Part shown: in pieces, positions 2,596 to 21,128 of the stretch
Layout of the letters: each line of letters begins with the position of its first letter
Position numbering within the stretch: position 1 is the stretch's first letter
Assembly: GCA_963753595.1 (NCBI GenBank)
Contig: CAVWCX010000007.1
Span: 96,001-160,000 of the forward strand
Direction of reading: 5' to 3'
DNA length: 64,000 nt
Source: Candidatus Methanoperedenaceae archaeon
GTDB lineage: Archaea > Halobacteriota > Methanosarcinia > Methanosarcinales > Methanoperedenaceae
Translations under genes and position numbers: made by a program
The notes under the pieces: model-generated
Told to the model about the DNA's origin: nothing
Database searches by the model: none
Seen by the model: only the letters and a program-made list of their open reading frames with translations

Positions 2596-5500
2596 TCATT
2601 CTTCCATATTATCATTGATTAGCCATTGATAATTCGCTCCTATATCATTGATAGGCCCAAAGTGAATTCCCGTGGTATAACCAACAAGATGGTTCTGGCG
2701 TATGATCATCATCTTACCAATGTACCCATGCACTCGTATTCCATCAATATTTAACTCCCCGGTGAGGCCAGTCCGCACAACGCTGGCAAAATTGTTCTGT
2801 ATAATAAGACTATTGCAATTCCCAACGAAGATCCCGTGCCGTTCACGGGTTCCATAAGGTGGCAACAGAACATCTATATTATTGTTTATGATATGCACAA
2901 TCCCTGCACTATCGTGTGTATCGGGAGTTACCCCGCGATGGCTTATGCCAACATGGATACCCTGGATGACTCCTTTTATCCTGTTACTAATAATATTAAC
3001 ATCGCCTGCGCTGCTCCCACCGATAACTATTCCCTGCGATCCTGCTTCCACGTTTAATTTTTCAAGCTCATCATACCATATTTTGAATTGGTCATATTTT
3101 TCTCTATAATTCACATTGAGCAAAACCCGATCAGCGACATGGACCAAATGGAAGAGTAGGTCACGGTCATTTTGAACTCCTTTAGGTTCATTTTTCCTTA
3201 ACCATTCGTTCCATGCATTAACAAGTAATTCGCCTGGTCTGAACTCTACGAAACCATTGCCAGCTTCAATACGAACAACATTTGTATCCTCGAAGACCTT
3301 ATCAGGTTTTCCAAGGTGCGCTGCCGGAATCATCAGGCTTCGAATTGCAGATCTGTATCTTTCGTTCCGTAACAACACATCCAAAGGCAGACTTTCTGGC
3401 ATTTTGCTGACATTTAAAACATTGTCCTCAACATGAGCGCTCTGGACATTAATAAGAAGGATTCCCACCTGCATAAGTCCAATGTGAAGGTCGCAGTTAT
3501 GTATGTGTACGGATTCTACCAGTTTTATCTTTTCATATATGTATAGCTTCTCTGTTTTCTTATCTTCCATTGCAATGAATTTATCGGTTCTACCATCGCT
3601 GATTATTACGGATACCTCTGTTTTGGCTTGATTAAGTTCTAAAGAAATAGTAATTGTTTCAAAATATACTGTTATTTTATTTATACCAATTTTATTAATT
3701 TTTTCCATATCTTCATTAATACTATATTTTTTCTGTAGAAATTCCACGAATTCTTTACCATCGACTCCTGGAATAGCATACCAGCTAAACGAATCCCTTT
3801 TTTCATGGGGATCATAATCAACGGCATCTCGAACATTGATGCATGAAGCCGCTCTTTCAGTACCTGCAGCACAAGTAAGCTCAACATCCTTGATTGTAAC
3901 CTTAGGGCATGCACAAAAGGTAAGTGTTCCATTCAGGGAGTTCAATTTTATTTTCTTGTCAAAGCCGGCAACTCCGCTTTCACCACACATGTCTTTGATC
4001 ACGACGCTTTTACATTCTTCGAATTGGAATATTGTTTCGCCCTCGAGTATTTTGATAATTGTACCTGTGCCGCTTCCACTGATCCTGATATGCCCTTTAT
4101 TTTTTAATACAATTGGTTTATAGGTAACAAATTCACCGATCTGGAAGCATATATTTGCATCCTGCTCGTCTTCTATAGTTTTAAATACGTCTTCCCAATC
4201 TTTTCGAGGCTCGATCACATGGGTACATATGCCCTGGCGATCTTTGCATAATTTGTTCAATGCGTCCTGCACTGTTATTATACTAATGTCTTCTTTTAGT
4301 TTTTTGCAAAGATCGTCATTCTTTTCGATCGGAAGGTCATCAGCATTGAATCTACATAGCAGCGCATCGAGAATATCCTTAACCTTTGAATCTGAACTGG
4401 CAGGGATATTTAATAGAGACCTGACCGTTGGATCAGCTGTCCCGTCGCAAGACGGACGGTAAGGGATATCGCTGCTGTCCAGATTCGCAACCAGGTCATC
4501 CAGGGCATTCTGCACCGTATATGGCAGAGACATACCGGAATCGGGAATTTCATTAATATCCTTCCACCGGTCTTCTTGTATTAAGGGATCATATGGAATA
4601 TCACCGCTATCCAGGTTTGCAACGAGGTTATCCAGGGCATCCTGCACCGTATATGGCAGAGACGTACCAGGTTTGGGAATTTCATTAATATCCTTCCACC
4701 GGTCTTCTTGTATTACGGGATTATATGGAATCTCCCCGGCTTCCAGTTCGCACAGGAGGGTATCCAGCACATCCTTAACAGTTGTATTCTCTGCATCATC
4801 TTTTGGCCAACTTTTTATCTTATCTATAAGAAGCTTCTGAACTGTAGGAATATCATTGCTGGTAAGTATATTTGTACAACCAGGCGGTTTATAGGCTACC
4901 TCGCTGGCCACGCTGAGGTTTGCATTGAAACGGATAGGTATATTGACAGATTTATCGCAGGCATCACGCAGCGTTGCCTCCACCTGCTGACCCTGTGTCG
5001 TTTTGTCAAGCACCCACCTGCAGGTTGCGATTCCCTCCTCGTCTGTATAAACATCAATAAAATCTTTCGGCAATCCGACTTTACCCATGATGGTGCCTTT
5101 CCCAATTGTGATCTGGAAACGCACCTTTGCATTCGTTACATATTGTTTTCCATTGGCTACTCCGACCTGTAGATATCCGGGAAGCTCTTCACCTGGCATT
5201 GCCTCCTGCCCGTCGCCGCAGACATGGAAGAAACTGGTAAGCTCTGTCACTGCAGGGAAAAGCCTGCGGCAGTCGCTGAGAAGCTCCCATTTATTATCGC
5301 TATCTTGCTTCAGCACTGCCAGGCGGCAGTAATGGTGCCTTATGCCTTCAGGCGGCTCTGGTTTTGGTTTTTTGGTTTCATCCATTGGCCATTCAATCTT
5401 CTCTGTCGCGGTGCGGGCCGGGATCAGCCAGTAATCTCCAGCCCTGAAGCTTGTCCCTGAGAACTGCACAAATATACCATCTTCAAGCTCGATAGAATCA

Positions 5501-6528
5501 TGCCCTGTGGCAGGCTTTACTGATATGGCATCGCTTCCCATGTCCCAGCGGCGGACCTTTGGGTGTCGCTTCAAATCTCCTGAAACGGCCTGGTTCAGTG
5601 TGATTATGCGCCCTGCTACATCAGGGGACTCGGTAATGTACGTGAGAGTTCCTGCCGGATTATCTGATAATTCCGTGACATCATCCAGCACTTCAACCCA
5701 ATCGTCTGTTTTCAATGAAAGTGTTTTGTCCTTCCCGAGTTGTTTAACTTTCAGTTTGGTAAGCTTGTCATTTGTATCTTTTATAAACTCTTCGATAGCG
5801 AATACAACCGAACCGTTGTCACGCGACCATTTGAACGTTGCATCTTTAAGTTCACCACCCTTATGGATTTCTACGCGATAGAGCTGGTTTTCAAGCCCAC
5901 GGTAGCCCGCGCCCGGAGAAACACTGCATGGGTTTTTACTCGGAGTCACCTTCTTTGTGAAGGCAGTAAGCTGTGCACCACTTCCAGCGGTGATATTTTT
6001 CCATTCTTGTATGATCGGCTTGCAGTCCACCACAGTTGAAACCTTATAATCCTTTAATGGGTTAAGTTTCACCTGCCAGACCGTTTTGGTTCTTGTGGAT
6101 GTATCCGGTCCCCCAAGTGCGACTTCGCGGATCTGTGGGTCTTCTATCGCAGTCATGTGGCGTTGCCATACATCCAGGTATGCCAGGTAAACACCCTCAC
6201 CGGGCAAATTGGAGAAACCAGGCAGATCATCCTGATCTAAGATATTGATATCTATGGAATTCTCACACAGGATTCCATCTACGTAGATTCTTCCCTCAGA
6301 TATTGTCAGGTTTTCTTTATCAGACGTAGGGTCTATCTTGAATCCACCGCCATCTTGCGGCGCACCGCATGGTCCAATGATATCGAGTGCTTCTTTCTCG
6401 ATTCGGTATGAATTTATATCGTTCTGTTCATTCCAGTCGGCATCAAGCTGGACGCGCCCCTGCTGCATGCGGACACTGCTATAATTTTTTTCAGGTTTAA
6501 ATGTGGATCGTGTAAAATCGCCTTTCAT
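2596..6528 (-). CDS. DUF6519-like eCIS protein (candidate fibre/adhesin) with internal repeats and a C-terminal beta-helix-like region
   Basis: True start is probably MKGDFTRSTF (ATG at 6528, GGAGG upstream). Motifs QQGRVQLDADWNEQ and ENQLYRVEIH..G...TFKWSRDNGS; Ig-like segment GDGQEA; C-terminal repeats of the I..N.I type. Confidence 0.8.
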   Translation of the reverse strand: MKGDFTRSTFKPEKNYSSVRMQQGRVQLDADWNEQNDINSYRIEKEALDIIGPCGAPQDGGGFKIDPTSDKENLTISEGRIYVDGILCENSIDINILDQDDLPGFSNLPGEGVYLAYLDVWQRHMTAIEDPQIREVALGGPDTSTRTKTVWQVKLNPLKDYKVSTVVDCKPIIQEWKNITAGSGAQLTAFTKKVTPSKNPCSVSPGAGYRGLENQLYRVEIHKGGELKDATFKWSRDNGSVVFAIEEFIKDTNDKLTKLKVKQLGKDKTLSLKTDDWVEVLDDVTELSDNPAGTLTYITESPDVAGRIITLNQAVSGDLKRHPKVRRWDMGSDAISVKPATGHDSIELEDGIFVQFSGTSFRAGDYWLIPARTATEKIEWPMDETKKPKPEPPEGIRHHYCRLAVLKQDSDNKWELLSDCRRLFPAVTELTSFFHVCGDGQEAMPGEELPGYLQVGVANGKQYVTNAKVRFQITIGKGTIMGKVGLPKDFIDVYTDEEGIATCRWVLDKTTQGQQVEATLRDACDKSVNIPIRFNANLSVASEVAYKPPGCTNILTSNDIPTVQKLLIDKIKSWPKDDAENTTVKDVLDTLLCELEAGEIPYNPVIQEDRWKDINEIPKPGTSLPYTVQDALDNLVANLDSGDIPYDPLIQEDRWKDINEIPDSGMSLPYTVQNALDDLVANLDSSDIPYRPSCDGTADPTVRSLLNIPASSDSKVKDILDALLCRFNADDLPIEKNDDLCKKLKEDISIITVQDALNKLCKDRQGICTHVIEPRKDWEDVFKTIEDEQDANICFQIGEFVTYKPIVLKNKGHIRISGSGTGTIIKILEGETIFQFEECKSVVIKDMCGESGVAGFDKKIKLNSLNGTLTFCACPKVTIKDVELTCAAGTERAASCINVRDAVDYDPHEKRDSFSWYAIPGVDGKEFVEFLQKKYSINEDMEKINKIGINKITVYFETITISLELNQAKTEVSVIISDGRTDKFIAMEDKKTEKLYIYEKIKLVESVHIHNCDLHIGLMQVGILLINVQSAHVEDNVLNVSKMPESLPLDVLLRNERYRSAIRSLMIPAAHLGKPDKVFEDTNVVRIEAGNGFVEFRPGELLVNAWNEWLRKNEPKGVQNDRDLLFHLVHVADRVLLNVNYREKYDQFKIWYDELEKLNVEAGSQGIVIGGSSAGDVNIISNRIKGVIQGIHVGISHRGVTPDTHDSAGIVHIINNNIDVLLPPYGTRERHGIFVGNCNSLIIQNNFASVVRTGLTGELNIDGIRVHGYIGKMMIIRQNHLVGYTTGIHFGPINDIGANYQWLINDNMEE
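4463..4730. repeat. 132-bp (44-aa) tandem duplication inside the DUF6519-like gene
   Basis: IPY.P.IQEDRWKDINEIP..G.SLPYTVQ.ALD.LVANLDS.D occurs twice; DNA offset is 132 (cagggcat at 4501 and 4633). Confidence 0.9.
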
Positions 6529-6547
6529 ATAATTACCTCCTTTTTTA

Positions 6548-8686
6548 TCAAGTGACATAAAATATACCAGCCTCAAGTCCGACGCGCATGTATTCCTCAA
6601 GGCTTGCGCGCAGGTTTGCCTCCCGCTGTGGCTGTTGTAAATGGTGGAATACACCCATCTCTGCCTCATCTTGTGCCCCCTCCCGGATCTCTACAGGGCA
6701 TTGCAAATATAACTGGGCATAACCGGGGTGACCGTAACCCAGGTCTGTAAAGATTGGTTTCAGCCGTACCGCTATTTCATTTTCAATTTGATTCCTTATC
6801 TTCTCCTCAAGTTCTTTCTGTTCTTGAGGCGTCATTCCCGATTTCTTCTTCAGTGCAGCATCAAGCTCTTTTTTTACGGCGTTCTGTATTGCAGTATCAG
6901 AGTTCTTTATTACAGTATCAGGCTGGCAGCGGTACTGGCGTGGAACCTTTGATCCTTTCGGGAAATAACTGAAACGCATACATCCTTCCTGGTTTCTATC
7001 TGCAATCACTTCTCCTGTAAAAATGCTGTTGCTGCCGAGCTTGAAGGACTGTACCGAAACGTTGCCAAGGACGGTGCTCTCTTCTATGACAACCGAAGGA
7101 CCTTTAATTGCAGAACCGCCTAACCCGTCTATAATACTGTCCTTGATAGATAAACGGTATGTACCTTCAAGATTAAGGCTCCCTGTAATAGACCGGTTGA
7201 CTGTAACATCAAGATGTAAATTTCCCTTGAGCGATTCCTTTCCCACAGATTTGGGAGTGGAATCAATATAAAGGTCAATCCCGGGTACCAGGGTGGAATG
7301 CAGCACTTGCAGAGACCCCAGGTCGCCGTCAAGGATATTTATATTGCCACCTGTGATTAGTAATCCGTCGATTATCATCTGACCGCCAGGCTGGTCTTTT
7401 TTAGCTTTATCCCCTTTGATGGTGAGAGTGCCAGCCAGGCGAATGATCGGACGCTCTCCATTGTCTGCCCTGATTTCAAGCGTTATGCCTGCTGGTATGT
7501 TAAACTCAAGTTTTGTATCTTCTTTAAATATATTGCTGTCTTTTATGGAAAATACTGCATCCGGGCGTTGATCTGCCTCCCAGGAAGAGATTGCATCTTT
7601 AATAGTATTTATAAACCCCGGTGATTTAGCGATATTATACTGCTTAATACCTGCATTGGTCTGCCTTATGCCTGTACGGCGGTCGTAAAAACCACCGCCT
7701 ACCTCGCTGCTAAAGCCGTAATAATATGTGACCTGAACATCTGATGGTGGAACCGCGTATGAAAAAGCTATTCGTCCAAGGACCGGATCAACTGCGACCA
7801 TACCATCCGGCGGCAGGTGTTCCCAACCGCTCAAGTCGCAGGGGACTATCTCATCAGCCGGGATGTCCCTGCCGTCTGCCCTGATATGGATGCTTTTATC
7901 CTTACCATAGTATAATTCCTTAGAGGTATAAAAAGCCCGGCGGCGTATCGGGGAAGGTACGTTTACCTCCCCGGCAAGATGGGTGGGGTTTTGTTCTGTC
8001 ACCGGATGGTTGAAAAGCTGGATATCATTGCCAAGCTGGCTGAAACTGAACCGCCCTTTACTGTGCAAAAACGCCGGTGCCTCTCTCACCGGGTATGCCT
8101 GCAAGCGCCACAAATATATGCCGATATTCATGATGTTGTATTTTCCCCTCCTGTTCTCAATATGGCGGACTTCGGCTGTATGGGCGACAGTATCAAAAGG
8201 AGTATCAAGAAGCTCTAATTTTTCACCATCGCGTATATCAGGCGAACGGTGATTATCCAACCGTATGTGATTGATATATTGCGTGGTCCCGAGCAGTTTG
8301 AAGAACTCAACTACCCTTGCATCCCATCCTGTTGTATCATGCGCCAGTTGCTCAAGCATCGAGGCTGTGCCTTTACGCCTGCGGTAACCCAGTGTATTTG
8401 CGACCCGGGCGCGCTGGCTGAACGTAGCTTTTTCGCTGATGGGATGAAGGTTCCTCACGCCCAGCAGGTTACCAATGTAGGGTACGACCCACTCGTCGCA
8501 GGTTTCTATGAACCAGTTATCGTAGAGCCGGGCAATATCCTCATCCATCACATCAGCCTGCTGTGCGAGGACTTCCATGAATGCCTTCAGGACTTCTCCA
8601 TTCTCTGAAACTTCTCCGTTCTCTGAATCACGGATCCTGTAGATTGCGGGCAATAACTGGTAAAGTTTATCTGCGCTGTAGCTCAA
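6548..8686 (-). CDS. baseplate wedge / tail protein I-like eCIS protein
   Basis: LYQLLPAIYRIRD, YDNWFIETCDEWVVPYIG, RRKGT motifs; sits downstream of the two baseplate J genes. Confidence 0.75.
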   Translation of the reverse strand: MSYSADKLYQLLPAIYRIRDSENGEVSENGEVLKAFMEVLAQQADVMDEDIARLYDNWFIETCDEWVVPYIGNLLGVRNLHPISEKATFSQRARVANTLGYRRRKGTASMLEQLAHDTTGWDARVVEFFKLLGTTQYINHIRLDNHRSPDIRDGEKLELLDTPFDTVAHTAEVRHIENRRGKYNIMNIGIYLWRLQAYPVREAPAFLHSKGRFSFSQLGNDIQLFNHPVTEQNPTHLAGEVNVPSPIRRRAFYTSKELYYGKDKSIHIRADGRDIPADEIVPCDLSGWEHLPPDGMVAVDPVLGRIAFSYAVPPSDVQVTYYYGFSSEVGGGFYDRRTGIRQTNAGIKQYNIAKSPGFINTIKDAISSWEADQRPDAVFSIKDSNIFKEDTKLEFNIPAGITLEIRADNGERPIIRLAGTLTIKGDKAKKDQPGGQMIIDGLLITGGNINILDGDLGSLQVLHSTLVPGIDLYIDSTPKSVGKESLKGNLHLDVTVNRSITGSLNLEGTYRLSIKDSIIDGLGGSAIKGPSVVIEESTVLGNVSVQSFKLGSNSIFTGEVIADRNQEGCMRFSYFPKGSKVPRQYRCQPDTVIKNSDTAIQNAVKKELDAALKKKSGMTPQEQKELEEKIRNQIENEIAVRLKPIFTDLGYGHPGYAQLYLQCPVEIREGAQDEAEMGVFHHLQQPQREANLRASLEEYMRVGLEAGIFYVT

Positions 8687-11600
8687 AGTCTCATCTCCGT
8701 TAATTCGATTCCCCCGGGATTCACGGTAAGGAGTTCGGCAAGTATTTGCCTGCTATTATCCAGACTTGCAATACCGGCTCCCAGGTAAGCTTTCAGCGCC
8801 GGCATATCCCCTTTCAGGTAGAGGGCATTCAGATCAACAGCTATAACCCCTTCTACTCCCTGCATTACTGCAAGCACCTCGCTCTCAGTGACCGCCTGCC
8901 CGAAGCTGCGCTGCTCGAATGAGAATGCCTGCTTCAGAACATCAGTGATAGCAACCAGGACCTTCTCTTTAATGTACCTGCTATCCACCTGCACACTTGC
9001 AGACAGGTTGAAGAAGAGTGGATTAAAAGAATCTATGCGGAACTGCTGTACAGGGTCCTTGGCTCCCTTGATACCAAGCCAGAGGTTCTTATATAGTTCT
9101 GACATCTTATCGACCATCCCTGCATCGGCTGAAGCGACGGTGATATGTACGAAGTGCACCTCGCCATCCCGGAGCCATGCAGCCCGGGCTTTTCCGATAC
9201 CGGCGAAGGCACGGGTAAAATCTTCAAAATCCTGCAATGATACGATGCGGTCAAGCGTGAGTACTTTCTGGGGCGCATTCTGTTTCGCCTGGTCGCGGGT
9301 TTCGGGGTCAGCTGCCCCTGTAGGAGCAAGTGGGTTAATAACTCCTTTCACACCCAGGGGGCGTGTCATCAGGAGGCTTAACTGGTTCGCTTTGACCATA
9401 CCCTGCATTCCGATACCAGTCCTGTAAGTAGCTGTAATATTTTCCTGCCCTGAAGTAAGCCTTGCTCCATTTTTTCCATCACCAAAGGTAAGGGTAGTAT
9501 TACCGTTATCATCTATGCGTATGATATGACCCTGGATGCGCGCATCCAGCCCGTAAAGGGAAGGCACTTCCTGCCATTTTACATCGTTTACCCTTACCTC
9601 AATTGTGCTTTCAGTGCCGCTTGGGGTCTTTGCAGATACATAGGTAAGAGGTTTTTTAAGCATAAAATGCTGGTTCGCCCGGGCACCGCTGCCGCTTCCC
9701 AGCACTTCGCGCACTGTTTCGCCGTGAGTGGCACGCGCCACATTGGCATAGATAGTCACTGTGGCGGGGTCATAGCAGTTCTGCATCCTCTGCTTGAGGA
9801 CAAGAATGGTTCCCGTTTCTGAGATCCCTTCAAGCTCTGCCGCTTCGCTGACAGCCGTATCCTGCGGTGCTGCAGGCATCTGCAGGATACTATCATGAAG
9901 TGCGGTCACCGAACCTGTGAATCCGTCCCTGTCCATCAATGTCCAGCGCAAATCAGTACCAATTTCAACCTGTGGCTCCAATACCTGGAGCACATCTCCT
10001 GGCCGGATGGTTTTTACTCTCTCGCCATCGGAGGATACAAGTTCAAGCCCGGCCCGTGTAACAAGGGCACGCATCCGCTTGCCGCTGATAATAAGGATCT
10101 TGCCTTTGTCAAGCCCGGATACAAGGTTACCAAGTTCAATTTCATTACCTGACAACAAATCGGTGCGCGGCGTTTCGGCAATGTCAAGTTGCTCGCTCTG
10201 GGCGAAGACAATGGTTTGCCGAAGATTATCAAAGTTATCAGAAATTTCTTCGTGTAGGGTCACCCGCGTTGTTTTTCCTGTCAATGTGAAATTGGATTGC
10301 GAATCTTCCACCACATTTTTAATTATATAAGGTTCTTTGTAATATGGAGAAGATAAAATCAACCAACTGTCTGGTAATATCTGCTGATAGACAGCATCTA
10401 AAAAAATATTCTTCTTATCCTGTGAGATTTTGAATCCTGGCCATTCATCGTATTTCTGATAAAAATCAGGTCGATAAAGATTAGCTTCAGGAATAATCTC
10501 ATTCTTATTATCGGGAGTTTGCCAGGACAGTTTGATTATCCCCTCACCAATACCTATGTGATAGTATTCCAGCTTAATATCGTAAATTTGTCCTTTCACA
10601 AGCGATATCGTTGCGCTGTCTTTTGTAGATCCGTGATCCGTCCAGTTATTGATAATCAATTTGCCATCCACCCATAACCTGGTCCCATCATCAGATTGAG
10701 TGTAAAACGTGTAGATCCCGGTAAACTCAGGCTTAACAAAACCTGTCCAGCGAGCTGAGAAGTTATTAAAGTTGACGGCAAGATCAGGAGAACTTGTACC
10801 CTGCCAGTTCACCTGAGTTTCTCTCTTTATCACTTTTGGACTTACCACATTTGGATTGATATTATTAAAATATTCTGCATACAAGCCTGTATCGCTGTTT
10901 GAGGGATTTATATAGTTTTTTTTAACATTGGCCGGCATTGTACGCCAGTCAGGTGCATTATATCCGAAAATGGACGCACGCAAACGAAAAGCATATATCT
11001 TGAGTTCCTCTTCCGTCGTTGTCAGTTCTTTATTCCAGGTTGCCTGTGTGCATCCAGCGGCTATATCAGCAGTAACGGCCTTCACTATTCGAAAATTGGG
11101 ATCACTGCCAGGGTACTTACCCATAAAGAGAAGGCCGTCCCCGGGTTTCAATCTTGTTGCGGTGCTTTTGAGATAAACCTCTTTGCTGCCCATAACCGGT
11201 ATTTTCTTCTCGGTCAGTCTCGGTTTCAATTCATTCCATGCCGCCCTTGCCTCTATCTTTTCGATAGTTTCAAAGGTCTGTGGTTTCTCGTTCTGCCCGG
11301 GAATGCTCATTACCTTTACACCTGTATCAATGGTTGCATAGCCCGGCGTGCCCGGGGCATTATCCAGGGTAAACGCCAGGAATGTACTTGCTGCAACACC
11401 GGGCTTGAGTTCATACCCGATGGCGCGGGCAAGCTCGATCACCGAACTTCGCTCAACAGCCGTGAGAAGGTTGCCCTCATTTGCAATTCTTTCCTGGTAA
11501 AAAGTGAGCACATCAAGCACGCAAGCCCATGCATCGATCAAAGCAATGGACGGATCGTCATCTTCCCTGATGGTCAATCCGCCAAGAGCCTTCAGGCTGG

Positions 11601-11757
11601 ATAGTGCGGCTATCATCGTTGTTTTAAAGCTTCCGTGCGTCCCGACCCTGTAAGAGAGAGCAGGAAGACCTGGAAGGTTTTCAAGCGAAACAGGGGTCAG
11701 GGCAGTTATACCTTTGCAGCAGCCGCAGGTATCATTAGTCTTGTTCTTGGAATTCAT
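8683..11757 (-). CDS. baseplate J-like protein with an inserted PA14 domain
   Basis: DDPSIALIDAWA..DVLTFYQERIANE, LTFGDG..GAR, DRIVSLQDFEDF; PA14-type segment FSARWTG...SDDG.RLWVDG. Confidence 0.85.
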   Translation of the reverse strand: MNSKNKTNDTCGCCKGITALTPVSLENLPGLPALSYRVGTHGSFKTTMIAALSSLKALGGLTIREDDDPSIALIDAWACVLDVLTFYQERIANEGNLLTAVERSSVIELARAIGYELKPGVAASTFLAFTLDNAPGTPGYATIDTGVKVMSIPGQNEKPQTFETIEKIEARAAWNELKPRLTEKKIPVMGSKEVYLKSTATRLKPGDGLLFMGKYPGSDPNFRIVKAVTADIAAGCTQATWNKELTTTEEELKIYAFRLRASIFGYNAPDWRTMPANVKKNYINPSNSDTGLYAEYFNNINPNVVSPKVIKRETQVNWQGTSSPDLAVNFNNFSARWTGFVKPEFTGIYTFYTQSDDGTRLWVDGKLIINNWTDHGSTKDSATISLVKGQIYDIKLEYYHIGIGEGIIKLSWQTPDNKNEIIPEANLYRPDFYQKYDEWPGFKISQDKKNIFLDAVYQQILPDSWLILSSPYYKEPYIIKNVVEDSQSNFTLTGKTTRVTLHEEISDNFDNLRQTIVFAQSEQLDIAETPRTDLLSGNEIELGNLVSGLDKGKILIISGKRMRALVTRAGLELVSSDGERVKTIRPGDVLQVLEPQVEIGTDLRWTLMDRDGFTGSVTALHDSILQMPAAPQDTAVSEAAELEGISETGTILVLKQRMQNCYDPATVTIYANVARATHGETVREVLGSGSGARANQHFMLKKPLTYVSAKTPSGTESTIEVRVNDVKWQEVPSLYGLDARIQGHIIRIDDNGNTTLTFGDGKNGARLTSGQENITATYRTGIGMQGMVKANQLSLLMTRPLGVKGVINPLAPTGAADPETRDQAKQNAPQKVLTLDRIVSLQDFEDFTRAFAGIGKARAAWLRDGEVHFVHITVASADAGMVDKMSELYKNLWLGIKGAKDPVQQFRIDSFNPLFFNLSASVQVDSRYIKEKVLVAITDVLKQAFSFEQRSFGQAVTESEVLAVMQGVEGVIAVDLNALYLKGDMPALKAYLGAGIASLDNSRQILAELLTVNPGGIELTEMRL

Positions 11758-14696
11758 AAGCCACCATCCATGTTAAAATCAATTTTGCCGTTTTCAGGAA
11801 AGTTAGGGTCATTATCGAGCCTTATTACTTCAAGTGTCCCCGGTATCAGGACCCCGTTTTCTATCTCATGGACAGGCAGTTTGCCCCAGCGCTGGAAAAG
11901 CGTCACTTTAACCCATGCTACACCTGCAACTCCCATGGCCGCTTCATACATGCGGCTTAGATATACGGGCTGGCTGAAGGTGAAATTATCGGGGTGGAAG
12001 AAACCGCGCCTGCCGTTTACGAGTTCATGGTTACTGAAAGCGAGAAGTAAGGATTGTTTGACATTGCTTCGGAAGTATCCGGGTTTGACACAGACGTTCA
12101 TTGCGATCTCAAGGGGCACGTAAATCGGGCTGTTAATCTCAATATCATAACCAGCTATCCTGTATTGATCCAGGAAAGTCAGCATTTTTTTCTTGAAATC
12201 ATCATTTACATCGCCTCCGCCTTTTCTGTCGATCGTGACAAATGCCGTATGCCAGCTCCCGGTCCAACGGATGTTCGCTATGGCTTTTTGAACTCCGGGA
12301 TGCTTTTGTGCCATCTCTTCATAATCTGCCTCGGTAACAGCCCGTTCCTGGGTACGGAATGCCTGCGGGGCATAGAGGCGCACCTGTTCCATCGGTTCAG
12401 GGTCAGTGCCGCCAGATGCGGGCAGAGGATTACGCACGCGATTTATGCCGCCACCTTTTATGGCAATACGGGAAATAGCCCCTGTGCCAACATTACCTGC
12501 CCTGCCGTTCCCGATCCTGTAAGTTGCTTTGAATGTGGAACCTTCAATGGGCATTTCGCCCAATATATTATCGCCAAAGCGAAGGTAGGAAAAGCCATCC
12601 AGCTCATTCTCAACTACGAACTCAGCAGCAAATTTGTCACTGGCGAGCAAATCATATTGCACAGACCACTTCGTCGCTTCATTGTTTTTGTCTTTGCTTA
12701 CAAGGTTAATTGCAGGAATAGCTTTTCGTATGTCCCTGAGCATAGCAGAAACGGCAGGTTTCTTTAGATCGGTATCCAGGTTAAACTGTTCACGGTATGT
12801 CAGAGGTCCGGAAATGAGCCTTGGACAGTATGAACCTTTTTCGGGCACCAGATCAGGCACCATGGCTTCAGTAACGGTGCGCCCGTGGTCAACCAGAACC
12901 GCATTTCCCCGCGCAACGGCTATATCTGAGATGCGACTGTCTTTAATGGGGGCTGAAATACACAGGGGAAAGGGAAGGGCATCGTCTTCATGCCATTTAA
13001 TTTCCACAACTGGCGTATTATCCAGGGGGTCTTTCATTTTAGTTACTTTGGTCAGGCGGACCGCATGACGGTGGGAGGGATCTGCATCTTTCCCGGTCGT
13101 CGGGCTGCATACTTCTTCAAATACCAGGACATCCCCTGCATTAAGGAATAATTCATCGATATCAAATAAAGTCGCCTGCGTACTGCCGCGCGGCAGGCAG
13201 CATGCGGTATCGTTCCATGTATAAAACCTGATACGATTGTGGGCGCTGTACAATGTCACAGGATACATAGTCTCGAACACCGTGACGTCACCTGTCAAAA
13301 AAGACCTGAGTTTGTCAGGATCAACTACGGCAGCTTTATCAGAACCGCGTGTAAGAAGGATCGTGCCCTTTGGCAGAGGTCTGCCATATACATTAAGTAG
13401 TCCGCTCTCTTTTTTTATCTGGAGGCTGTAAGTTTGATTATCATCTATTTTTAATATCGCATTTTCTTCACTTTTATCAAGCGTAATCTCTACTGATTTT
13501 CCATAGCTAATGATACTGATAATTTTATTATCCTTTGATATACTGATCGTTGCATTTTTTGCCCATTCGATGCCAAGGACATCCATAAGGAAATTCAGTA
13601 CCCTGCTTTTATCCTTTCCGATTGCGCTGTCCCAGTTAAACCAGTATGCTTTGCCATCTATTGCCTTGTACTCATCAACCTCCAGGCATACCCAGGCACG
13701 CGCATTGCAGCCTTCGTGCATGAAATAATCAAGTAGCCTAGCATGGCGCCGCAAAGATATCCTTTTGCGGGCAGTGCCAAGATACGCATCAGTGGCGACA
13801 GCATCCTGGAAATAGCTCAGGTTATCGCCTACATATGCAAGCATTTCCACCAGCGCAACCTGGAGGTCGGCAGGGTTTCGCTCTCTCCAGTCAGGCATGA
13901 TGACGCTTAACCTGTCCAGCATGAGGCGACGGAAGCTGGCATAATCCTTGGCAAGATAATCTATCTCAGGTTCTGGCAGTTTTTCCGGAGGACATTCACT
14001 TTGCGGCTTGCAGTCAAATTCAGCAGGGCATTTGACCTTGAACGAGAAGTCCACATGCGATAACTGTGGATCAAAGCCGTCGGGCGGCGATAGGTCGGTT
14101 TTTGATTTAACTATACGGAGCGTATATTTTGAAAAATCCCCAAGACTGTTTACTGTAACATTAACAATTTTACCTTCCTGATTAACGGGTTCCATGGGGC
14201 CCACTTCTACGTTCTTGATCCTTACGCCTCCTTCGATAACCACATTGGCTTCCGTTAGCTCCTTGCCTCTTAGGGGAACTGAAAGAGGGAAAATGAAATG
14301 AACCTCTAACGTGCTCTTTCCAGTTTCTCCGTCAACTTTTACCTCAAGGTAATCAATCCCGTTAATCGTCGGAGTGTATATGTTCAGAGTGCCATTTTCC
14401 ATCTTCGCATTGAGTTCAGAGGTTCCATCGCCACCGATTTTGAGGATCACTTTAGTGCTATCATCATTAAGTTCCAGAGAAACAGAATTTGTACCAGTAG
14501 ATACATTTATGGTCTTACCATCGATTTTTTTAATGTTTGCTTTTGTTACCCAATCAAGATCAAAAATTTGTTTTAGACAGTCTATAAGTTTAACATTATC
14601 GTTTCTTAGAATATCATCCCAGCTAAACAAATACGTCAGGTGACTGGCAACTGCCTGGCGTCTGCCCTCTTTATTGCAGCGGTATTGTGTACCCAT
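11754..14696 (-). CDS. baseplate J-like protein (Afp11/gp6-like) with two inserted ~86-aa modules
   Basis: IDYLAKDYASFRRLMLDRL, LSYFQDAVATDAYLGTA, RFGD..G, RAVTEADY motifs. Confidence 0.88.
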   Translation of the reverse strand: MGTQYRCNKEGRRQAVASHLTYLFSWDDILRNDNVKLIDCLKQIFDLDWVTKANIKKIDGKTINVSTGTNSVSLELNDDSTKVILKIGGDGTSELNAKMENGTLNIYTPTINGIDYLEVKVDGETGKSTLEVHFIFPLSVPLRGKELTEANVVIEGGVRIKNVEVGPMEPVNQEGKIVNVTVNSLGDFSKYTLRIVKSKTDLSPPDGFDPQLSHVDFSFKVKCPAEFDCKPQSECPPEKLPEPEIDYLAKDYASFRRLMLDRLSVIMPDWRERNPADLQVALVEMLAYVGDNLSYFQDAVATDAYLGTARKRISLRRHARLLDYFMHEGCNARAWVCLEVDEYKAIDGKAYWFNWDSAIGKDKSRVLNFLMDVLGIEWAKNATISISKDNKIISIISYGKSVEITLDKSEENAILKIDDNQTYSLQIKKESGLLNVYGRPLPKGTILLTRGSDKAAVVDPDKLRSFLTGDVTVFETMYPVTLYSAHNRIRFYTWNDTACCLPRGSTQATLFDIDELFLNAGDVLVFEEVCSPTTGKDADPSHRHAVRLTKVTKMKDPLDNTPVVEIKWHEDDALPFPLCISAPIKDSRISDIAVARGNAVLVDHGRTVTEAMVPDLVPEKGSYCPRLISGPLTYREQFNLDTDLKKPAVSAMLRDIRKAIPAINLVSKDKNNEATKWSVQYDLLASDKFAAEFVVENELDGFSYLRFGDNILGEMPIEGSTFKATYRIGNGRAGNVGTGAISRIAIKGGGINRVRNPLPASGGTDPEPMEQVRLYAPQAFRTQERAVTEADYEEMAQKHPGVQKAIANIRWTGSWHTAFVTIDRKGGGDVNDDFKKKMLTFLDQYRIAGYDIEINSPIYVPLEIAMNVCVKPGYFRSNVKQSLLLAFSNHELVNGRRGFFHPDNFTFSQPVYLSRMYEAAMGVAGVAWVKVTLFQRWGKLPVHEIENGVLIPGTLEVIRLDNDPNFPENGKIDFNMDGGL

Positions 14697-15053
14697 TTAC
14701 ATCACTCTCTTAAATTCATCGACATTGCTTTGCTGGTTACTTCTGACCTTATACCGCACTTTAACGCTCACCGTACTGTCCTCGCCTGTAACCTGTACAT
14801 CTTCGACCAGGATCAAATCCCCAAGCCACTGCTGTAAAGCACCCTGTACAGTCAGTTGCACGGCTGCTGTCAGCATGTCGCTATTGGGAGCAAAGACAAG
14901 CTGCAATAAGCCGCTCCCGAAAGTTGGGCGGTTGACCCGTTCGCCGGGTGAAGTGAACAGCACCTGCTCAATAAGATCGCGGATGTGCTTGGTGTCATCA
15001 GCACTGGCAGTACGCCCGCGGCCATCGAAATGGAATGGATAGTCTATGTTCAT
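14697..15053 (-). CDS. gp25/gpW-like baseplate protein
   Basis: IEQVLFTSPGERVNRPTFGSGL..LVF motif. Confidence 0.92.
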   Translation of the reverse strand: MNIDYPFHFDGRGRTASADDTKHIRDLIEQVLFTSPGERVNRPTFGSGLLQLVFAPNSDMLTAAVQLTVQGALQQWLGDLILVEDVQVTGEDSTVSVKVRYKVRSNQQSNVDEFKRVM

Positions 15054-15376
15054 CAAATCCCCTTGACTCGCATCTGGTTAACTATAATATTCAACCCTGT
15101 ACCTGTTGGAACACAGACTGCCTGGCTGTCCTGCAGAAGTACAGGCATTCCACCTGCCTTCACGCGTATCGCTGCGGTTACCCACTGGGCTGTCACGCAT
15201 GGTCCGGTGCCCGCCGGTGGCACGAATGGACACCCGACAATCGTATAAGTGCTCATTTGGGTCACAACCGGCTGGCTGTTTACTTTTACGCGCGGGTTAG
15301 AAACGACCGGCTGCGCCTGCCCGGAATGCATACACATCACCGTAGCGCTGGAATGGAGAAGATAACCCGGCATCAT
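15053..15376 (-). CDS. PAAR-like (DUF4280-type) spike tip
   Basis: Cys-rich: C.H.G ... GCPF....PC...W; directly follows the spike gene. Confidence 0.75.
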   Translation of the reverse strand: MMPGYLLHSSATVMCMHSGQAQPVVSNPRVKVNSQPVVTQMSTYTIVGCPFVPPAGTGPCVTAQWVTAAIRVKAGGMPVLLQDSQAVCVPTGTGLNIIVNQMRVKGI

Positions 15377-16023
15377 GTCACCTCCAGTGCGCCATTGTTT
15401 ATTGTTACCTGCGATCCTGACATCTTGATACTTGCTCCCTGCCCGTTGGTTATCTCAATGCCACTTGAGCTTATCACCATCTTCTGTCCACCCGATGTCT
15501 CAAGCTTGATTTCCTGCCCATTGGTTATCTGGATGCCATTTGAGTCTATGACTATCTTCTGTCCCCCTGATGCCTCAATCTTGATTACCTGCCCTTTGGT
15601 TATCTCGATGCCATTTGAATCCATGACTATCTTCTGTCCTCCTGATGTTTCAAGGGTGATCCCTCCGGAGCCGGATGTATCGTCCAGCAGGATACTGTGG
15701 CCGCTCTCGGTCTTGAGCATCACTTTTTTATAAGGTTCTGAAAGTAGCACCGGCGGCATTTCGGCAGAAGAGCCCCACCAGCATCCTGACCATATCGGAT
15801 AGTCCGGGTCGCCGTGCTCAAATTCTATCCAGACACCCGCATCTGTAACAGGAAGCGCAAAAAAGCCCATGGCTTTGCCGCCAAAAGGCGCGCACGGCAT
15901 CGCCCAGCCGCTCTCCTGGTCGCCCAGTACATCGGGCACCTTTGCACATATCCTCCCTATCATTAGCGGGTCTTTATTATCAGTCACAATACCTCGATAT
16001 TTTCCATAGAAAGTATTACTCAT
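15373..16023 (-). CDS. baseplate assembly protein V / gp5-like spike
   Basis: YGKYRGIV..NKDP...GRI..KVP, WAMP, VWIEFEHGDPDYPIWSG; beta-strand repeats at the C-terminus. Confidence 0.9.
   Translation of the reverse strand: MSNTFYGKYRGIVTDNKDPLMIGRICAKVPDVLGDQESGWAMPCAPFGGKAMGFFALPVTDAGVWIEFEHGDPDYPIWSGCWWGSSAEMPPVLLSEPYKKVMLKTESGHSILLDDTSGSGGITLETSGGQKIVMDSNGIEITKGQVIKIEASGGQKIVIDSNGIQITNGQEIKLETSGGQKMVISSSGIEITNGQGASIKMSGSQVTINNGALEVT
15437..15655. repeat. three 75-bp (25-aa) tandem repeats in the spike gene
   Basis: [LI]E[TA]SGGQK.V..S.GI.IT.GQ repeated three times. Confidence 0.85.
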
Positions 16024-17156
16024 GGTCGTACAACCGGCAGTAAAGCGCCGGTTCCCTCCTTGCTGATCTTGAAGTCTTGTTTATAAGTTGCACTTTTTTG
16101 GGGGCTGCCAAGCTCGATTATGTGTTTGATGCTTCGCACGTAATAGTTGCCGTTATAGGAAAAACCAACCCCACGGACACCCACCAGTTTGCGGGCGCGC
16201 AGCACGTAGCCGTAGCGCAACGTATCGAGTTCTCCATCACCAGTAACCGCTTCATGTGCGCCAGTCACAGCGGCGACTGCGCTTGTGGATGCCTGTGCAG
16301 GGTTCTGGTTAGCTGTGTCTCTCAATATCATAATACGTTTTGCCTCCATTGGATTTGCTGCAAGCGGCGGTATGCGCAGTGACGGAAGCGTCGGGATCGG
16401 GATACTTACCTTTGTTTTAGGTTCGACAAAAGCCCCTTTGGTGCCAACAGGTGAAAGTGCGTCCTGCGAAAAGCGAAGTGAATTAACATTTGTCCACGAG
16501 CCCATGTTCATCGTCAGGGCAGGCTGTGGAATGCCCAGGCGGTTATCCGGACCCCAGTATGCGGTGTTCGAGCCGAAGGTTAGCGGCTCGATATAGAATA
16601 TAAAGCCGTTGCGTTTCGCGAGGCGCTTGATGAACTTCAGGTCAGTCTCATGCTGGCGCGGGATGCGTTCTGTAACGATTGGCACATCCGTGGTTGGCGT
16701 TATAGCCGGTACCAGCCCGTATTGCGCGTAAGAACCGATCAGTTGCGTTACTATCAGGGAATCAGTCTGGTTTTCGTACTTCTCGTTTTTCTGCTCAAGG
16801 TCAAGCATCTGGCTGACATCTTTGCCTGTAACAACGAGTGTAGACGTCCCGGGCTCGTTTCCTGGCAGTATCTGGTGATGTGCGATCACACCATCTATTA
16901 GAACTTCAGGAGTTGCGCCCAGTATTACCCCGATCATTACCCTGGTATAAGGCTCAATAATTCCGCTTTGAAGAATTCCGTAATCCATGGTTTTATCTTT
17001 GCCAAGGCTGAAAGTCATCTGGAAGCCGTCGCCATTTTCATCATCATTGGTTACTTCGACTTTGAGGAGTGAGTCCAGCACTTCGGATGGAGCGGGCTGC
17101 GGTATGGTTTTTCCCATCCACAGTACAAGACGCACACCAAGAATGCTTGCTAACAT
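16020..17156 (-). CDS. gpD/gp27-like hub protein (late control D family)
   Basis: GKDVSQMLD, Q.ETDLKFIKRLAKRNG, YNGNYYV..I.H motifs; immediately precedes the spike gene. Confidence 0.8.
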   Translation of the reverse strand: MLASILGVRLVLWMGKTIPQPAPSEVLDSLLKVEVTNDDENGDGFQMTFSLGKDKTMDYGILQSGIIEPYTRVMIGVILGATPEVLIDGVIAHHQILPGNEPGTSTLVVTGKDVSQMLDLEQKNEKYENQTDSLIVTQLIGSYAQYGLVPAITPTTDVPIVTERIPRQHETDLKFIKRLAKRNGFIFYIEPLTFGSNTAYWGPDNRLGIPQPALTMNMGSWTNVNSLRFSQDALSPVGTKGAFVEPKTKVSIPIPTLPSLRIPPLAANPMEAKRIMILRDTANQNPAQASTSAVAAVTGAHEAVTGDGELDTLRYGYVLRARKLVGVRGVGFSYNGNYYVRSIKHIIELGSPQKSATYKQDFKISKEGTGALLPVVRP

Positions 17157-17473: not shown

Positions 17474-18121
17474 TTATAAACCTCCTAATAGTGAAGACGA
17501 TGCTGAAATATTGCCGACGCTGCCTATGGTTGCCATTACTTCTTTGGCTACCTGGTGCGCCATGAACAGCGAGCCGCCAAAGCTTTTCATTCCCAGGTCC
17601 TGGTAATTAAGTACGCGCAGGGTCAGTTTGACTTTGGCATGTATGGGATTCAATTTAGGGTCGAAACTTTCTTCGGTGATGACGAACTGGGTAATACGCA
17701 CAGGAAGAACCCGCTTTACTCCCCACGCGAATAAGGTCAGCGGCGCCTCAGGCGGCATTATTTCGATAACGCCAAGAGAGGACAATACTTCATTGGCAAT
17801 AACCAGCGCAGACTTTGGATACAGCAGCATTTCAAGCGACGCCAGCGCAGGATAGATGCCCATTGAAGTGGCAGTGCTTTCTGCCTTCTCAAGCTGGTCT
17901 GCGGCATCAATGACAAGGTCAAGAGTAATGTCTTCTTCAGGCGGGCCGTTCAGGCGCAGTGCTTCGCCCTTATTCGTACCTCCGGTAGCCTGCATCTTAA
18001 GTGTACGTGAAAGCGTTACAGGATTATACTGGAACACTACCACGCTTGCCAGCGGGTTTATCGGGTCAAGCCCGATCAAGGCACCTTTTTGCAGGCGCGG
18101 GGATCCGGGGAATGTGGTCAT
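17474..18121 (-). CDS. eCIS tube-initiator-like protein
   Basis: FQYNP..L.R ... FAWG..RVLPVRIT...ITEESFDPKLNPIHAKV; precedes the LysM gene. Confidence 0.7.
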   Translation of the reverse strand: MTTFPGSPRLQKGALIGLDPINPLASVVVFQYNPVTLSRTLKMQATGGTNKGEALRLNGPPEEDITLDLVIDAADQLEKAESTATSMGIYPALASLEMLLYPKSALVIANEVLSSLGVIEIMPPEAPLTLFAWGVKRVLPVRITQFVITEESFDPKLNPIHAKVKLTLRVLNYQDLGMKSFGGSLFMAHQVAKEVMATIGSVGNISASSSLLGGL

Positions 18122-20865: not shown

Positions 20866-21128
20866 CGTTTCAATCCCCCATAAACTGCCCTTCCCGTCTT
20901 TGCTCCGATCACTTCTGCACTAGAATCTGATGTGATCTTGAACTCCATGCCGTTAAGTCCCTCAATCCTGCCTCCCCGTTCCAGCGATGGCGGCACTCCC
21001 TGCTCTGTAAACAACCGGGATAACTCGCGTTCAACAGCCTCCCCTATACTCCGGGAGTCACTTCCTGCAAAGCCGTCCAGTACAAGTTCTTCAATATTAA
21101 GTTCAATATTCTTTGGTCTCATACCCAT
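20862..21128 (-). CDS. small eCIS-associated hypothetical protein
   Basis: IELNIEELVLDG ... AVERELSRL; lies between the ATPase and DUF4157 genes and overlaps both. Confidence 0.7.
   Translation of the reverse strand: MGMRPKNIELNIEELVLDGFAGSDSRSIGEAVERELSRLFTEQGVPPSLERGGRIEGLNGMEFKITSDSSAEVIGAKTGRAVYGGLKR

Follow-up and report, generated by a model that had tools for sequence, protein, structure and literature searches.

Translated selfish DNA inside genes is known mainly from one bacterial genus, and its effect on the protein is still an open question. The Rickettsia palindromic elements (RPEs) are repeats of about 150 bp that lie in frame in unrelated genes (Ogata et al. 2000, as summarised in PMC10969869). 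The same summary names prokaryotic transposable elements of the miniature inverted-repeat kind (MITEs) with open reading frames (ORFs): ERIC, BOX, QMITE1 of Coxiella and the Anabaena MITEs. Here we investigated a stretch of 64,000 nucleotides from a Candidatus Methanoperedenaceae archaeon (assembly GCA_963753595.1, contig CAVWCX010000007.1, positions 96,001 to 160,000 of the forward strand), below called the window. Two genes of an extracellular contractile injection system (eCIS) in this window carry three in-frame copies (A, B and C) of one protein segment, which we call the module. The three segments are very probably copies of a non-autonomous, MITE-like DNA transposon whose whole length is one open reading frame.

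The closest precedent are the RPEs, set beside the module here by their summarised description. Both are short repeated DNA with many in-frame insertions in unrelated genes, where they apparently are translated as an additional peptide; for both, the insertion is considered compatible with the fold of the host. RPEs are palindromic along their length and come from obligate intracellular bacteria, whereas the module has 262 bp, is inverted only at its ends and comes from archaea; it further differs from the described RPEs by a measurable 8-bp target site duplication (TSD), a confidently predicted globular domain of 87 residues and self-nesting. With the ORF-carrying MITEs, as far as they are summarised, it shares a non-autonomous nature, terminal inverted repeats (TIRs), TSDs, multiple copies and in-frame fusions, which are occasional in those MITEs. 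These are mainly intergenic with incidental fusions, whereas the retained module copies that were examined lie almost wholly within ORFs, and their length arithmetic keeps the frame (262 + 8 = 270). Inteins likewise sit in frame in conserved proteins, are patchy among close alleles and are sometimes nested; unlike them the module has no splicing residues and no match to a Hint-like fold, has target duplications, and is expected to stay in the protein. Ordinary inserts of phage-tail-like baseplates and fibres, among them the PA14 domain in the baseplate gene next to P0001 and the eBAP5/DUF6519 tail fibres (PMC12923769), resemble the module as additional globular domains in peripheral loops of such proteins; PA14, unlike the module, belongs to a common, named family whose binding role is known.

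An initial annotation, made from the letters of the window alone, had proposed that the module may be an undescribed type of element. As a whole this went too far, in-frame coding MITEs being known already from Rickettsia. New here is an archaeal element that combines classical transposon ends, a measured TSD, frame-neutral arithmetic, a predicted globular domain and self-nesting. Remodelling of proteins by selfish DNA that is read through inside genes is a rare route, and the clear anatomy of this element (ends, TSD, arithmetic, fold and dozens of self-nested copies) makes the question of the protein effect testable.

The DNA unit, its ends and its flanks

The three segments had been reported as mutually similar interruptions of otherwise typical eCIS genes, and this was borne out by BLASTP for A and B (E 4e-13, 31% over 88 aa) and for A and C (E 8e-6); the comparison of B with C alone gave no significance (E 5.1). 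The limits given for A and B stood, and C had to be extended by one codon (3535-3795, not 3792). Both host proteins were as named, Baseplate_J and DUF6519 in Pfam, and lie inside an eCIS cluster (Table 1). The remark that the segments look AT-rich also held: GC content at third codon positions was 0.30, 0.37 and 0.23 in A, B and C, compared with 0.49 and 0.44 in the two host genes outside the modules and 0.41 over the long ORFs of the genome. This AT-richness goes beyond amino-acid composition.

In related genomes the module corresponds to a DNA unit of 262 bp, consisting of one G and 87 codons from TAT (Tyr) to TAC (Tyr). When one copy was compared by blastn with 49 genomes of the genus, the matches covered query positions of about 10-270, that is from Tyr codon to Tyr codon (261 bp), at 66-82% nucleotide identity. 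The same 261 bp separated the two Tyr codons in 29 of 34 copies of the second sample described below. The only ORF of the unit is the 87-residue module, and no Pfam, NCBIfam or PADLOC model matches it; the module was therefore rightly called unnamed. Short length without a transposase gene, TIRs, a TSD of fixed length and many unrelated loci are the features by which we assign the unit to the MITEs.

At the ends of the majority-codon consensus 12 of 13 bases are complementary; with the G/C end pair, a count by hand gives 13 of 14 and thus an imperfect inverted repeat of 14 bp, 5' GTATTTGTTTAGCT ... AGCTAAACATATAC 3'. Synonymous resampling of the same peptide reached 12 of 13 in 0.1% of cases with the codon usage of the genome and in 0.37% with that of the module. 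Individual copies scored 3-12 of 14 in the first and 6-12 of 14 in the second of two samples.

The flanks of the unit were compared in both samples. Among the 33 copies of the first, taken from this and related genomes, the 9-nt flanks matched at a mean of 4.79 of 9 positions compared with about 3.1 after permutation; 12 copies had at least 6 matches, none of 20000 permutations was as high, and the means were 2.1-3.1 when the register was shifted in codon-preserving steps. For the second sample, 39 copies were taken from the blastn list while their flanks were still unseen, and removal of look-alike flanks reduced them to 34. Here the mean was 5.47 compared with 3.01 permuted (again 0 of 20000 permutations as high), with at least 6 matches in 23 copies. 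The signal (P<5e-5 in each sample) appeared in the exact register only. Position by position, the match frequency was 0.56-0.76 at exactly 8 positions; beyond these it was 0.06-0.41, apart from a single value of 0.53. The best flank pair matched at 9/9 (locus L103) and others at 8/9. The base directly before TAT was G in 28 of the 34 copies, despite varied residues encoded by the preceding codon.

Unit and TSD together make 270 bp or 90 codons, and therefore the host frame is not shifted. The sense frame is open in every copy, and in the consensus unit four of the five other frames contain 5-14 stops each while one antisense frame is open. We consider the module to be translated, on the grounds of these open frames and of conservation at the protein level. 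The antisense frame (in copy A 14374-14643, plus strand) was fully open in 11 of 38 copies, and a further 13 had a single stop in it. That the element is used in antisense was considered and rejected: all matches coincided with sense copies, in short frames, and never lay inside a long gene. A hairpin in the codons of the W-N-D-V-P-G motif, seen by eye in Asn variants only, was dropped as a codon coincidence.

The initial annotation had stated that there are no TIRs, which does not agree with the family consensus and the flanking 8-bp direct repeats. TIRs and TSDs were missed because they are decayed in the copies of the window and become visible only with comparison data. Complementarity of the TIRs is 10/14 in A, 6/14 in B and 9/14 in C, and the base ahead of the first codon is G, A and G, respectively. 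Copy A is one codon short of the 87-codon consensus; each of its flanks seemed 6/8 identical to the 8-mer of an empty site in a metagenome described below, as read by eye. Copy B is the oldest and most diverged of the three, its synonymous divergence (dS) being saturated.

Family size, fold and self-nesting

A profile built from the three copies found four more in the same 2.9-Mb genome (E 2e-28, 4.4e-28, 2.8e-26 and 5.9e-5), that is seven in all, one of them a weak match. Their hosts are unrelated proteins, encoded by frames of 922 aa (TPR and DUF4332), 199 aa (a signal-peptide-like start), 239 aa (two hydrophobic segments and a coiled coil) and, for the weak match, 367 aa. Among 1.84 billion representative proteins the profile search gave 2142 matches at E<=1e-3, of which 1596 were at <=1e-10, with up to 12 matched stretches in a single protein. 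The module is not specific to eCIS genes, with four further copies in the genome and at least 2142 protein clusters. All 24 other sampled genomes of the genus contained the module (2-29 matches each), and elsewhere in the order 8 of 16 genomes had it. Even sampling of the phylum gave 25 of 301 genomes with the module, concentrated in the family of the window and one other family (19/38). The sole record name seen for module proteins was 'hypothetical protein [Candidatus Methanoperedens sp.]'.

Host domains were scanned in 46 top matches out of the best 150 listed. The hosts comprised NB-ARC/STAND and KAP NTPases, GAF, pentapeptide, HEAT and TPR proteins, an HNH nuclease, a CHAT protease, a RAMP protein, a trypsin-AAA protein, S-layer proteins of the Methanosarcinales type and several Baseplate_J, DUF6519 and DUF6603 proteins. 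Three 'stand-alone' module proteins of 118-158 aa (P0265, P0278 and P0279) have flanks that resemble translated non-coding DNA, and these may be intergenic copies of the element that were called as genes.

Viral contigs gave four pattern matches, none of which was confirmed, and the ESM Atlas gave no usable match. The motif strings FSWDEIPG and SWDEIPGND were not found in the literature searched, and a literature search that joined Methanoperedens with miniature inverted-repeat elements and in-frame insertions gave no description of the module family. The comparative genomics of anaerobic methanotrophic (ANME) archaea describes phage-like clusters, and the parts of that study consulted mention no inserted module (PMC9012536).

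AlphaFold2 with an alignment of 24 rows predicted an alpha/beta fold for the module, as a short strand, two helices and six strands, with high confidence (predicted local distance difference test, pLDDT, 92.3; predicted template modelling score 0.81). The core residues F, W, L and I are almost invariant. Foldseek against the PDB returned nothing at E<=1e-3, the best match being frataxin (E 0.059, template modelling score 0.42). A wide search with VIA-align gave a designed protein as best match (Z 5.2) and no convincing relative. Lack of fold relatives does not show that the fold is new. A homodimer prediction of the module scored 0.00, which was taken as no verdict and given no weight either way.

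In 27 of the 150 best profile matches, and in addition in P0006, a module was split by one whole module or by two. The nested order is N-N-C-C, which excludes tandem duplication as the source. The same nesting was found at the DNA level at four loci of related genomes. The break points fall at profile positions 27-30, 33-36, 42-44, 49-52, 56-62 and 70, and as read by eye, without statistics, they mostly sit between elements of the predicted secondary structure. Inner and outer copies are by eye highly alike in several cases (e.g. P0154 and P0155).

Empty sites, age and origin of the copies

The initial annotation had viewed the module as a mobile, lineage-specific domain that colonises surface loops. 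This is supported by a discrete 262-bp unit with TIRs and a TSD, which occurs in numerous unrelated genes and, at predicted loops, inside itself, and also by presence and absence among near-identical alleles. Empty sites exist in close homologues of both hosts (74-86% identical), as expected if typical eCIS sequence is interrupted in frame, and no bacterial homologue was found to carry the segment. Among the 120 best listed homologues of the baseplate protein P0001 six had the module, and forms of about 805 aa that are up to 86% identical to P0001 lacked both modules. P0007 had the module of site 1 only (the site of copy A), P0005, P0011 and P0012 that of site 2 only (the site of copy B), and in P0006 the site 2 module had two further copies nested within it.

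The genomic loci of 75 P0001 homologues, with flanks of up to 10 kb, were scanned for the module; a contig scan with P0001 alone gave no matches, whereas the alignment-based scan did. A clear module was found in one archaeal locus (L015) and a weak match in one more (L022), and there were none in the 69 loci without the name of an archaeon in their record title. The weak match is a degenerate module-like stretch in a metagenome-assembled genome of Bathyarchaeota (L022:9950-12766; profile E about 1e-4) without the FSW motif. At about aa 360-440 of its frame, it occupies a third site of the baseplate-J homologue, bounded by positions that correspond to about aa 510 and about aa 520 of P0001.

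One contig of a soil metagenome agrees with the window to either side of copy A and has 16 letters in place of 14373-14646; it is a related allele with an empty site 1. The same metagenome run covers copy B. Copy C lies in a loop of the beta-helix-like C-terminal part of the fibre protein P0002; this loop was short and the site empty in P0286-P0292, which are seven close homologues. Their identity across 56% of the region searched was 74% in six and 67% in P0292; across all of that region it was 54% in P0290. No homologue with the module at this site turned up. In a more distant group of DUF6519 proteins (P0293, P0296, P0297 and P0304) the same loop (window 3527-3804) contains an unrelated insert of about 80 residues, and the loop thus tolerates insertions and is a hot spot.

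The module closest to copy A was the one at the same site of P0007 (70% identity; next best 60%), and copy B had same-site orthologues in P0005 (69%), P0011 (61%) and P0012 (55%). In a tree of 24 host proteins with the insert columns excluded, the five holders of site 2 were rejected as one clade (approximately unbiased test, p 1.6e-7; at least 4 changes needed), as were the two holders of site 1 (p 1.4e-6; at least 2 changes). A FastTree of 280 modules over 87 columns did not make the site-1 pair sisters and was treated as unresolved. Patchy hosts combined with closest relatives at the same site would fit a single gain at each site with several later losses, or alleles exchanged through recombination.

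We propose that the element would be mobilised in trans by a transposase of the DDE type making 8-bp staggered cuts. Insertion would duplicate an 8-bp target and add 270 bp, leaving the host frame downstream intact; provided that the orientation is right and the first base falls on codon position 3, the element would be read through as an extra domain of about 87 residues. Entries in other orientations or frames would mostly truncate the host and would presumably be purged. A peptide that is predicted to fold alone and compactly could spare the function of the host when placed in a surface loop. Such read-through and self-folding would explain why copies are found in loops of the module itself and of numerous unrelated proteins, most of them large and evolving fast. 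In the window this would mean two entries into the gene of a gp6-like baseplate wedge protein and one into the distal part of a DUF6519 tail fibre, all three old and with decayed ends; both baseplate-gene insertions are shared with some related alleles. Loss could occur by slippage between the two 8-bp repeats or by replacement of the allele. In the eCIS the domain would chiefly be a tolerated passenger at the periphery of the particle and not a required part.

Beyond this, we give about even chances to the view that the transposon family has evolved to live inside genes, by a length that is frame-neutral together with the TSD and by a fast-folding domain that closes the interrupted loop, as a parasite at the protein level. 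If true, coding sequence, which is most of an archaeal genome, could be colonised with little harm, and Methanoperedens-like archaea would have a standing source of modular surface variation, including that of injection machines and of conflict proteins of the STAND/KAP type. On this view the element may still be active somewhere in the clade or on its extrachromosomal elements. The insertions give a concrete mechanism for the entry of new domains into existing protein loops, and they mark insertion-tolerant sites in an eCIS baseplate protein and a tail fibre that are of interest for particle engineering. They also serve as a warning for annotation, as an 'extra domain' in a Methanoperedens-type protein may be a mobile element and not an adaptation.

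Several observations weigh against the interpretation as a transposon. The ends are weak in the window's own copies (TSD 4, 6 and 6 of 8), and the case is built on the family. No covariation between the ends was detectable at four wobble pairs. The second sample contained the copies closest to a consensus-like copy and is hence biased to young ones, and copies from related genomes are not fully independent. Recent copies were not found: the closest non-adjacent paralogues examined have a dS of about 0.5 or more, and with no near-identical paralogues present-day activity is therefore not shown. Among A, C and three clear copies at other places of the genome dS was 0.54-0.98 and non-synonymous divergence (dN) 0.28-0.56; that copies in unrelated genes of the genome still share codons, with the exception of copy B, counts in favour of the transposon. 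In this genome, which is 92% complete, six transposase Pfam families were tried, and no autonomous element with such ends turned up. When the genome was scanned for the 13-mer end and <=2 mismatches were allowed, the 162 matches were mostly AT-rich and due to chance, and no pair was obvious. Finally, nearly all kept copies are inside long open frames, only 1 of 39 being in a frame as short as 151 aa. A purely neutral element should leave many intergenic copies, which hints at selection for retention or at targeting; either the intergenic copies decay fast or the genic ones are favoured.

Among the insertion sequences (IS) of the genome are 35 matches to PF01609, which fall into four IS families, as well as IS6-like genes and a single IS256-like gene; the TIRs of all these are unrelated to those of the module. 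IS66 and ISL3 transposases were not found in this genome. One of the four PF01609 families, of the IS4/IS5 type, is represented in the window by a 500-aa frame (transposase match at 41254-41961, plus strand). All four families have near-identical copies (98.8-99.9%), and mobile DNA is therefore active in the genome, though the IS ends differ from those of the module.

The preference for genes could also be understood if the module was a functional binding or adaptor domain spread by ordinary shuffling, through illegitimate or homologous recombination and without transposition, and retained for some useful property that it lends to the eCIS and to other surface or conflict proteins. Its conserved fold and nearly invariant F, W, L and I residues (pLDDT 92) would suit such a domain, kept copies are overwhelmingly genic, and PA14, another binding domain, is inserted in a neighbouring baseplate gene. 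Many hosts are STAND/KAP NTPases, TPR proteins, CHAT proteases, S-layer proteins and eCIS proteins, types that often carry adaptor domains. Recombination, however, makes no 8-bp target duplication in exact register, and it leaves unexplained the inverted ends, the conserved G before the first codon independent of the preceding residue, and the repeated entry of exactly one whole unit into itself. Module-free homologues are moreover the majority, so that the host does not need the module. We consider shuffling improbable. A further thought is that the segment is removed from the mature protein, as an intein or as an archaeal intron with a bulge-helix-bulge (BHB) motif. The ends of the unit can pair with each other, and presence and absence among alleles resemble those of homing elements. 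The absence of intein termini had been pointed out before and was confirmed: the modules begin with Y, Y and D, finish with IY, VY and IY and are followed by T, G and E in A, B and C, which means no Cys/Ser/Thr start, no His-Asn end and no nucleophile after the module. Typical mini-inteins are longer than 87 residues, and homing makes no target duplications. Mini-folds of the junctions of seven copies, a weak test relying on minimum free energy only, gave a plain terminal stem or other structures and not the two 3-nt bulges around a 4-bp helix of a BHB motif. Together with the conservation at the protein level and the confident fold, which imply translation, this makes splicing hardly credible.

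More weight belongs to the possibility that the module came by transposition and has since taken a role in the eCIS, for example in adhesion or receptor binding on the fibre and at the edge of the baseplate, or in linking the particle to other module-bearing proteins of the cell that are secreted or in the membrane. The copies at sites 1 and 2 stay open and alignable across alleles that differ by 15-30%, copy C lies in a variable and presumably receptor-binding part of the fibre, and three other module proteins of the genome (those with the signal-peptide-like start, with the two hydrophobic segments and coiled coil, and with TPR/DUF4332) could be such partners. The nearest alleles, up to 86% identical, nevertheless lack both baseplate copies, dN/dS between paralogues is high (roughly 0.3-0.9), no search indicated a ligand or partner, and the fold has no informative relative. 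We therefore regard a domesticated element as a doubtful reading, and prefer the non-autonomous transposon that is mainly tolerated by its hosts.

The eCIS cluster around the host genes

The minus strand of the window from about 2.6 to 23 kb is a gene cluster of the eCIS type (Table 1), with gp25, gp6/J-like, gpI-like, spike, PAAR-like, tube, eCIS_core (DUF4157) and AAA ATPase genes present. Sequence matches of P0001 in the PDB were a baseplate-J-like protein and T4 gp6. DUF6519 has been named eBAP5, an anchor domain of eCIS tail fibres, in the part of the source consulted (PMC12923769). The true start of P0002 is probably the Met at about 6528.

Table 1. Module copies, their flanking 8-mers and the genes of the eCIS cluster, in positions of the window.
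Feature	Position	Strand	Remarks
Copy A	14376..14634	minus	P0001 aa 22-107; 86 codons and leading G at 14634
Copy A, upstream 8-bp flank CACCTGAC	14635..14642	minus	TSD remnant; 4/8 identical to downstream flank
Copy A, downstream 8-bp flank ACTCCGAC	14368..14375	minus	4/8 identical to upstream flank
Copy B	13386..13647	minus	P0001 aa 351-437; 87 codons and one base at 13647 (A, not G)
Copy B, upstream 8-bp flank GGCAAAGC	13648..13655	minus	6/8 identical to downstream flank
Copy B, downstream 8-bp flank GGCAGACC	13378..13385	minus	6/8 identical to upstream flank
Copy C	3535..3796	minus	P0002 aa 959-1045; 87 codons and leading G at 3796
Copy C, upstream 8-bp flank GAAAAAAG	3797..3804	minus	6/8 identical to downstream flank
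Copy C, downstream 8-bp flank GAAAAGAT	3527..3534	minus	6/8 identical to upstream flank
P0002, host gene 2: 1357-aa DUF6519 tail fibre, eBAP5 baseplate-anchor N-terminus	2596-6669	minus	Pfam PF20129, E 1.4e-69
P0004: P2 gpI-like protein	6548-8686	minus	eCIS cluster
P0003: second J-like protein, 1024 aa, with inserted PA14 domain	8683-11757	minus	eCIS cluster
P0001, host gene 1: 980-aa Baseplate_J/gp6-like baseplate wedge protein	11754-14696	minus	Pfam PF04865, E 2.6e-8
gp25	14697-15056	minus	eCIS cluster
PAAR-like DUF4280 protein	15053-15376	minus	eCIS cluster
Phage_base_V spike (VgrG-like)	15373-16023	minus	eCIS cluster
GPD-like hub	16020-17156	minus	eCIS cluster
CIS_tube	17474-18121	minus	eCIS cluster
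eCIS_core/DUF4157 protein	18235-20865	minus	eCIS cluster
AAA ATPase	21119-23131	minus	eCIS cluster

This type of eCIS is scarce in the genus, P0001 having matched in 3 of 48 other genomes at about 55% identity, and the GC content of the eCIS genes (window 2596-23131) is 0.45-0.49 compared with 0.405 for the genome. GC content and rarity of the cluster fit a horizontal acquisition, the AT-rich modules arriving later or independently.

The PA14 domain inside P0003 (10486-10893, minus strand; Pfam E 8.6e-30) is another inserted module of the same machine, with a GC content of 0.40 compared with 0.49 for the remainder of P0003. In P0002, at about aa 640-760 (about 4390-4750, minus strand), two to three apparent tandem repeats of about 45 residues were seen in the translation only, with the motif IPY.P.IQEDRWKDINEIP...LD.LVANLDS.D.

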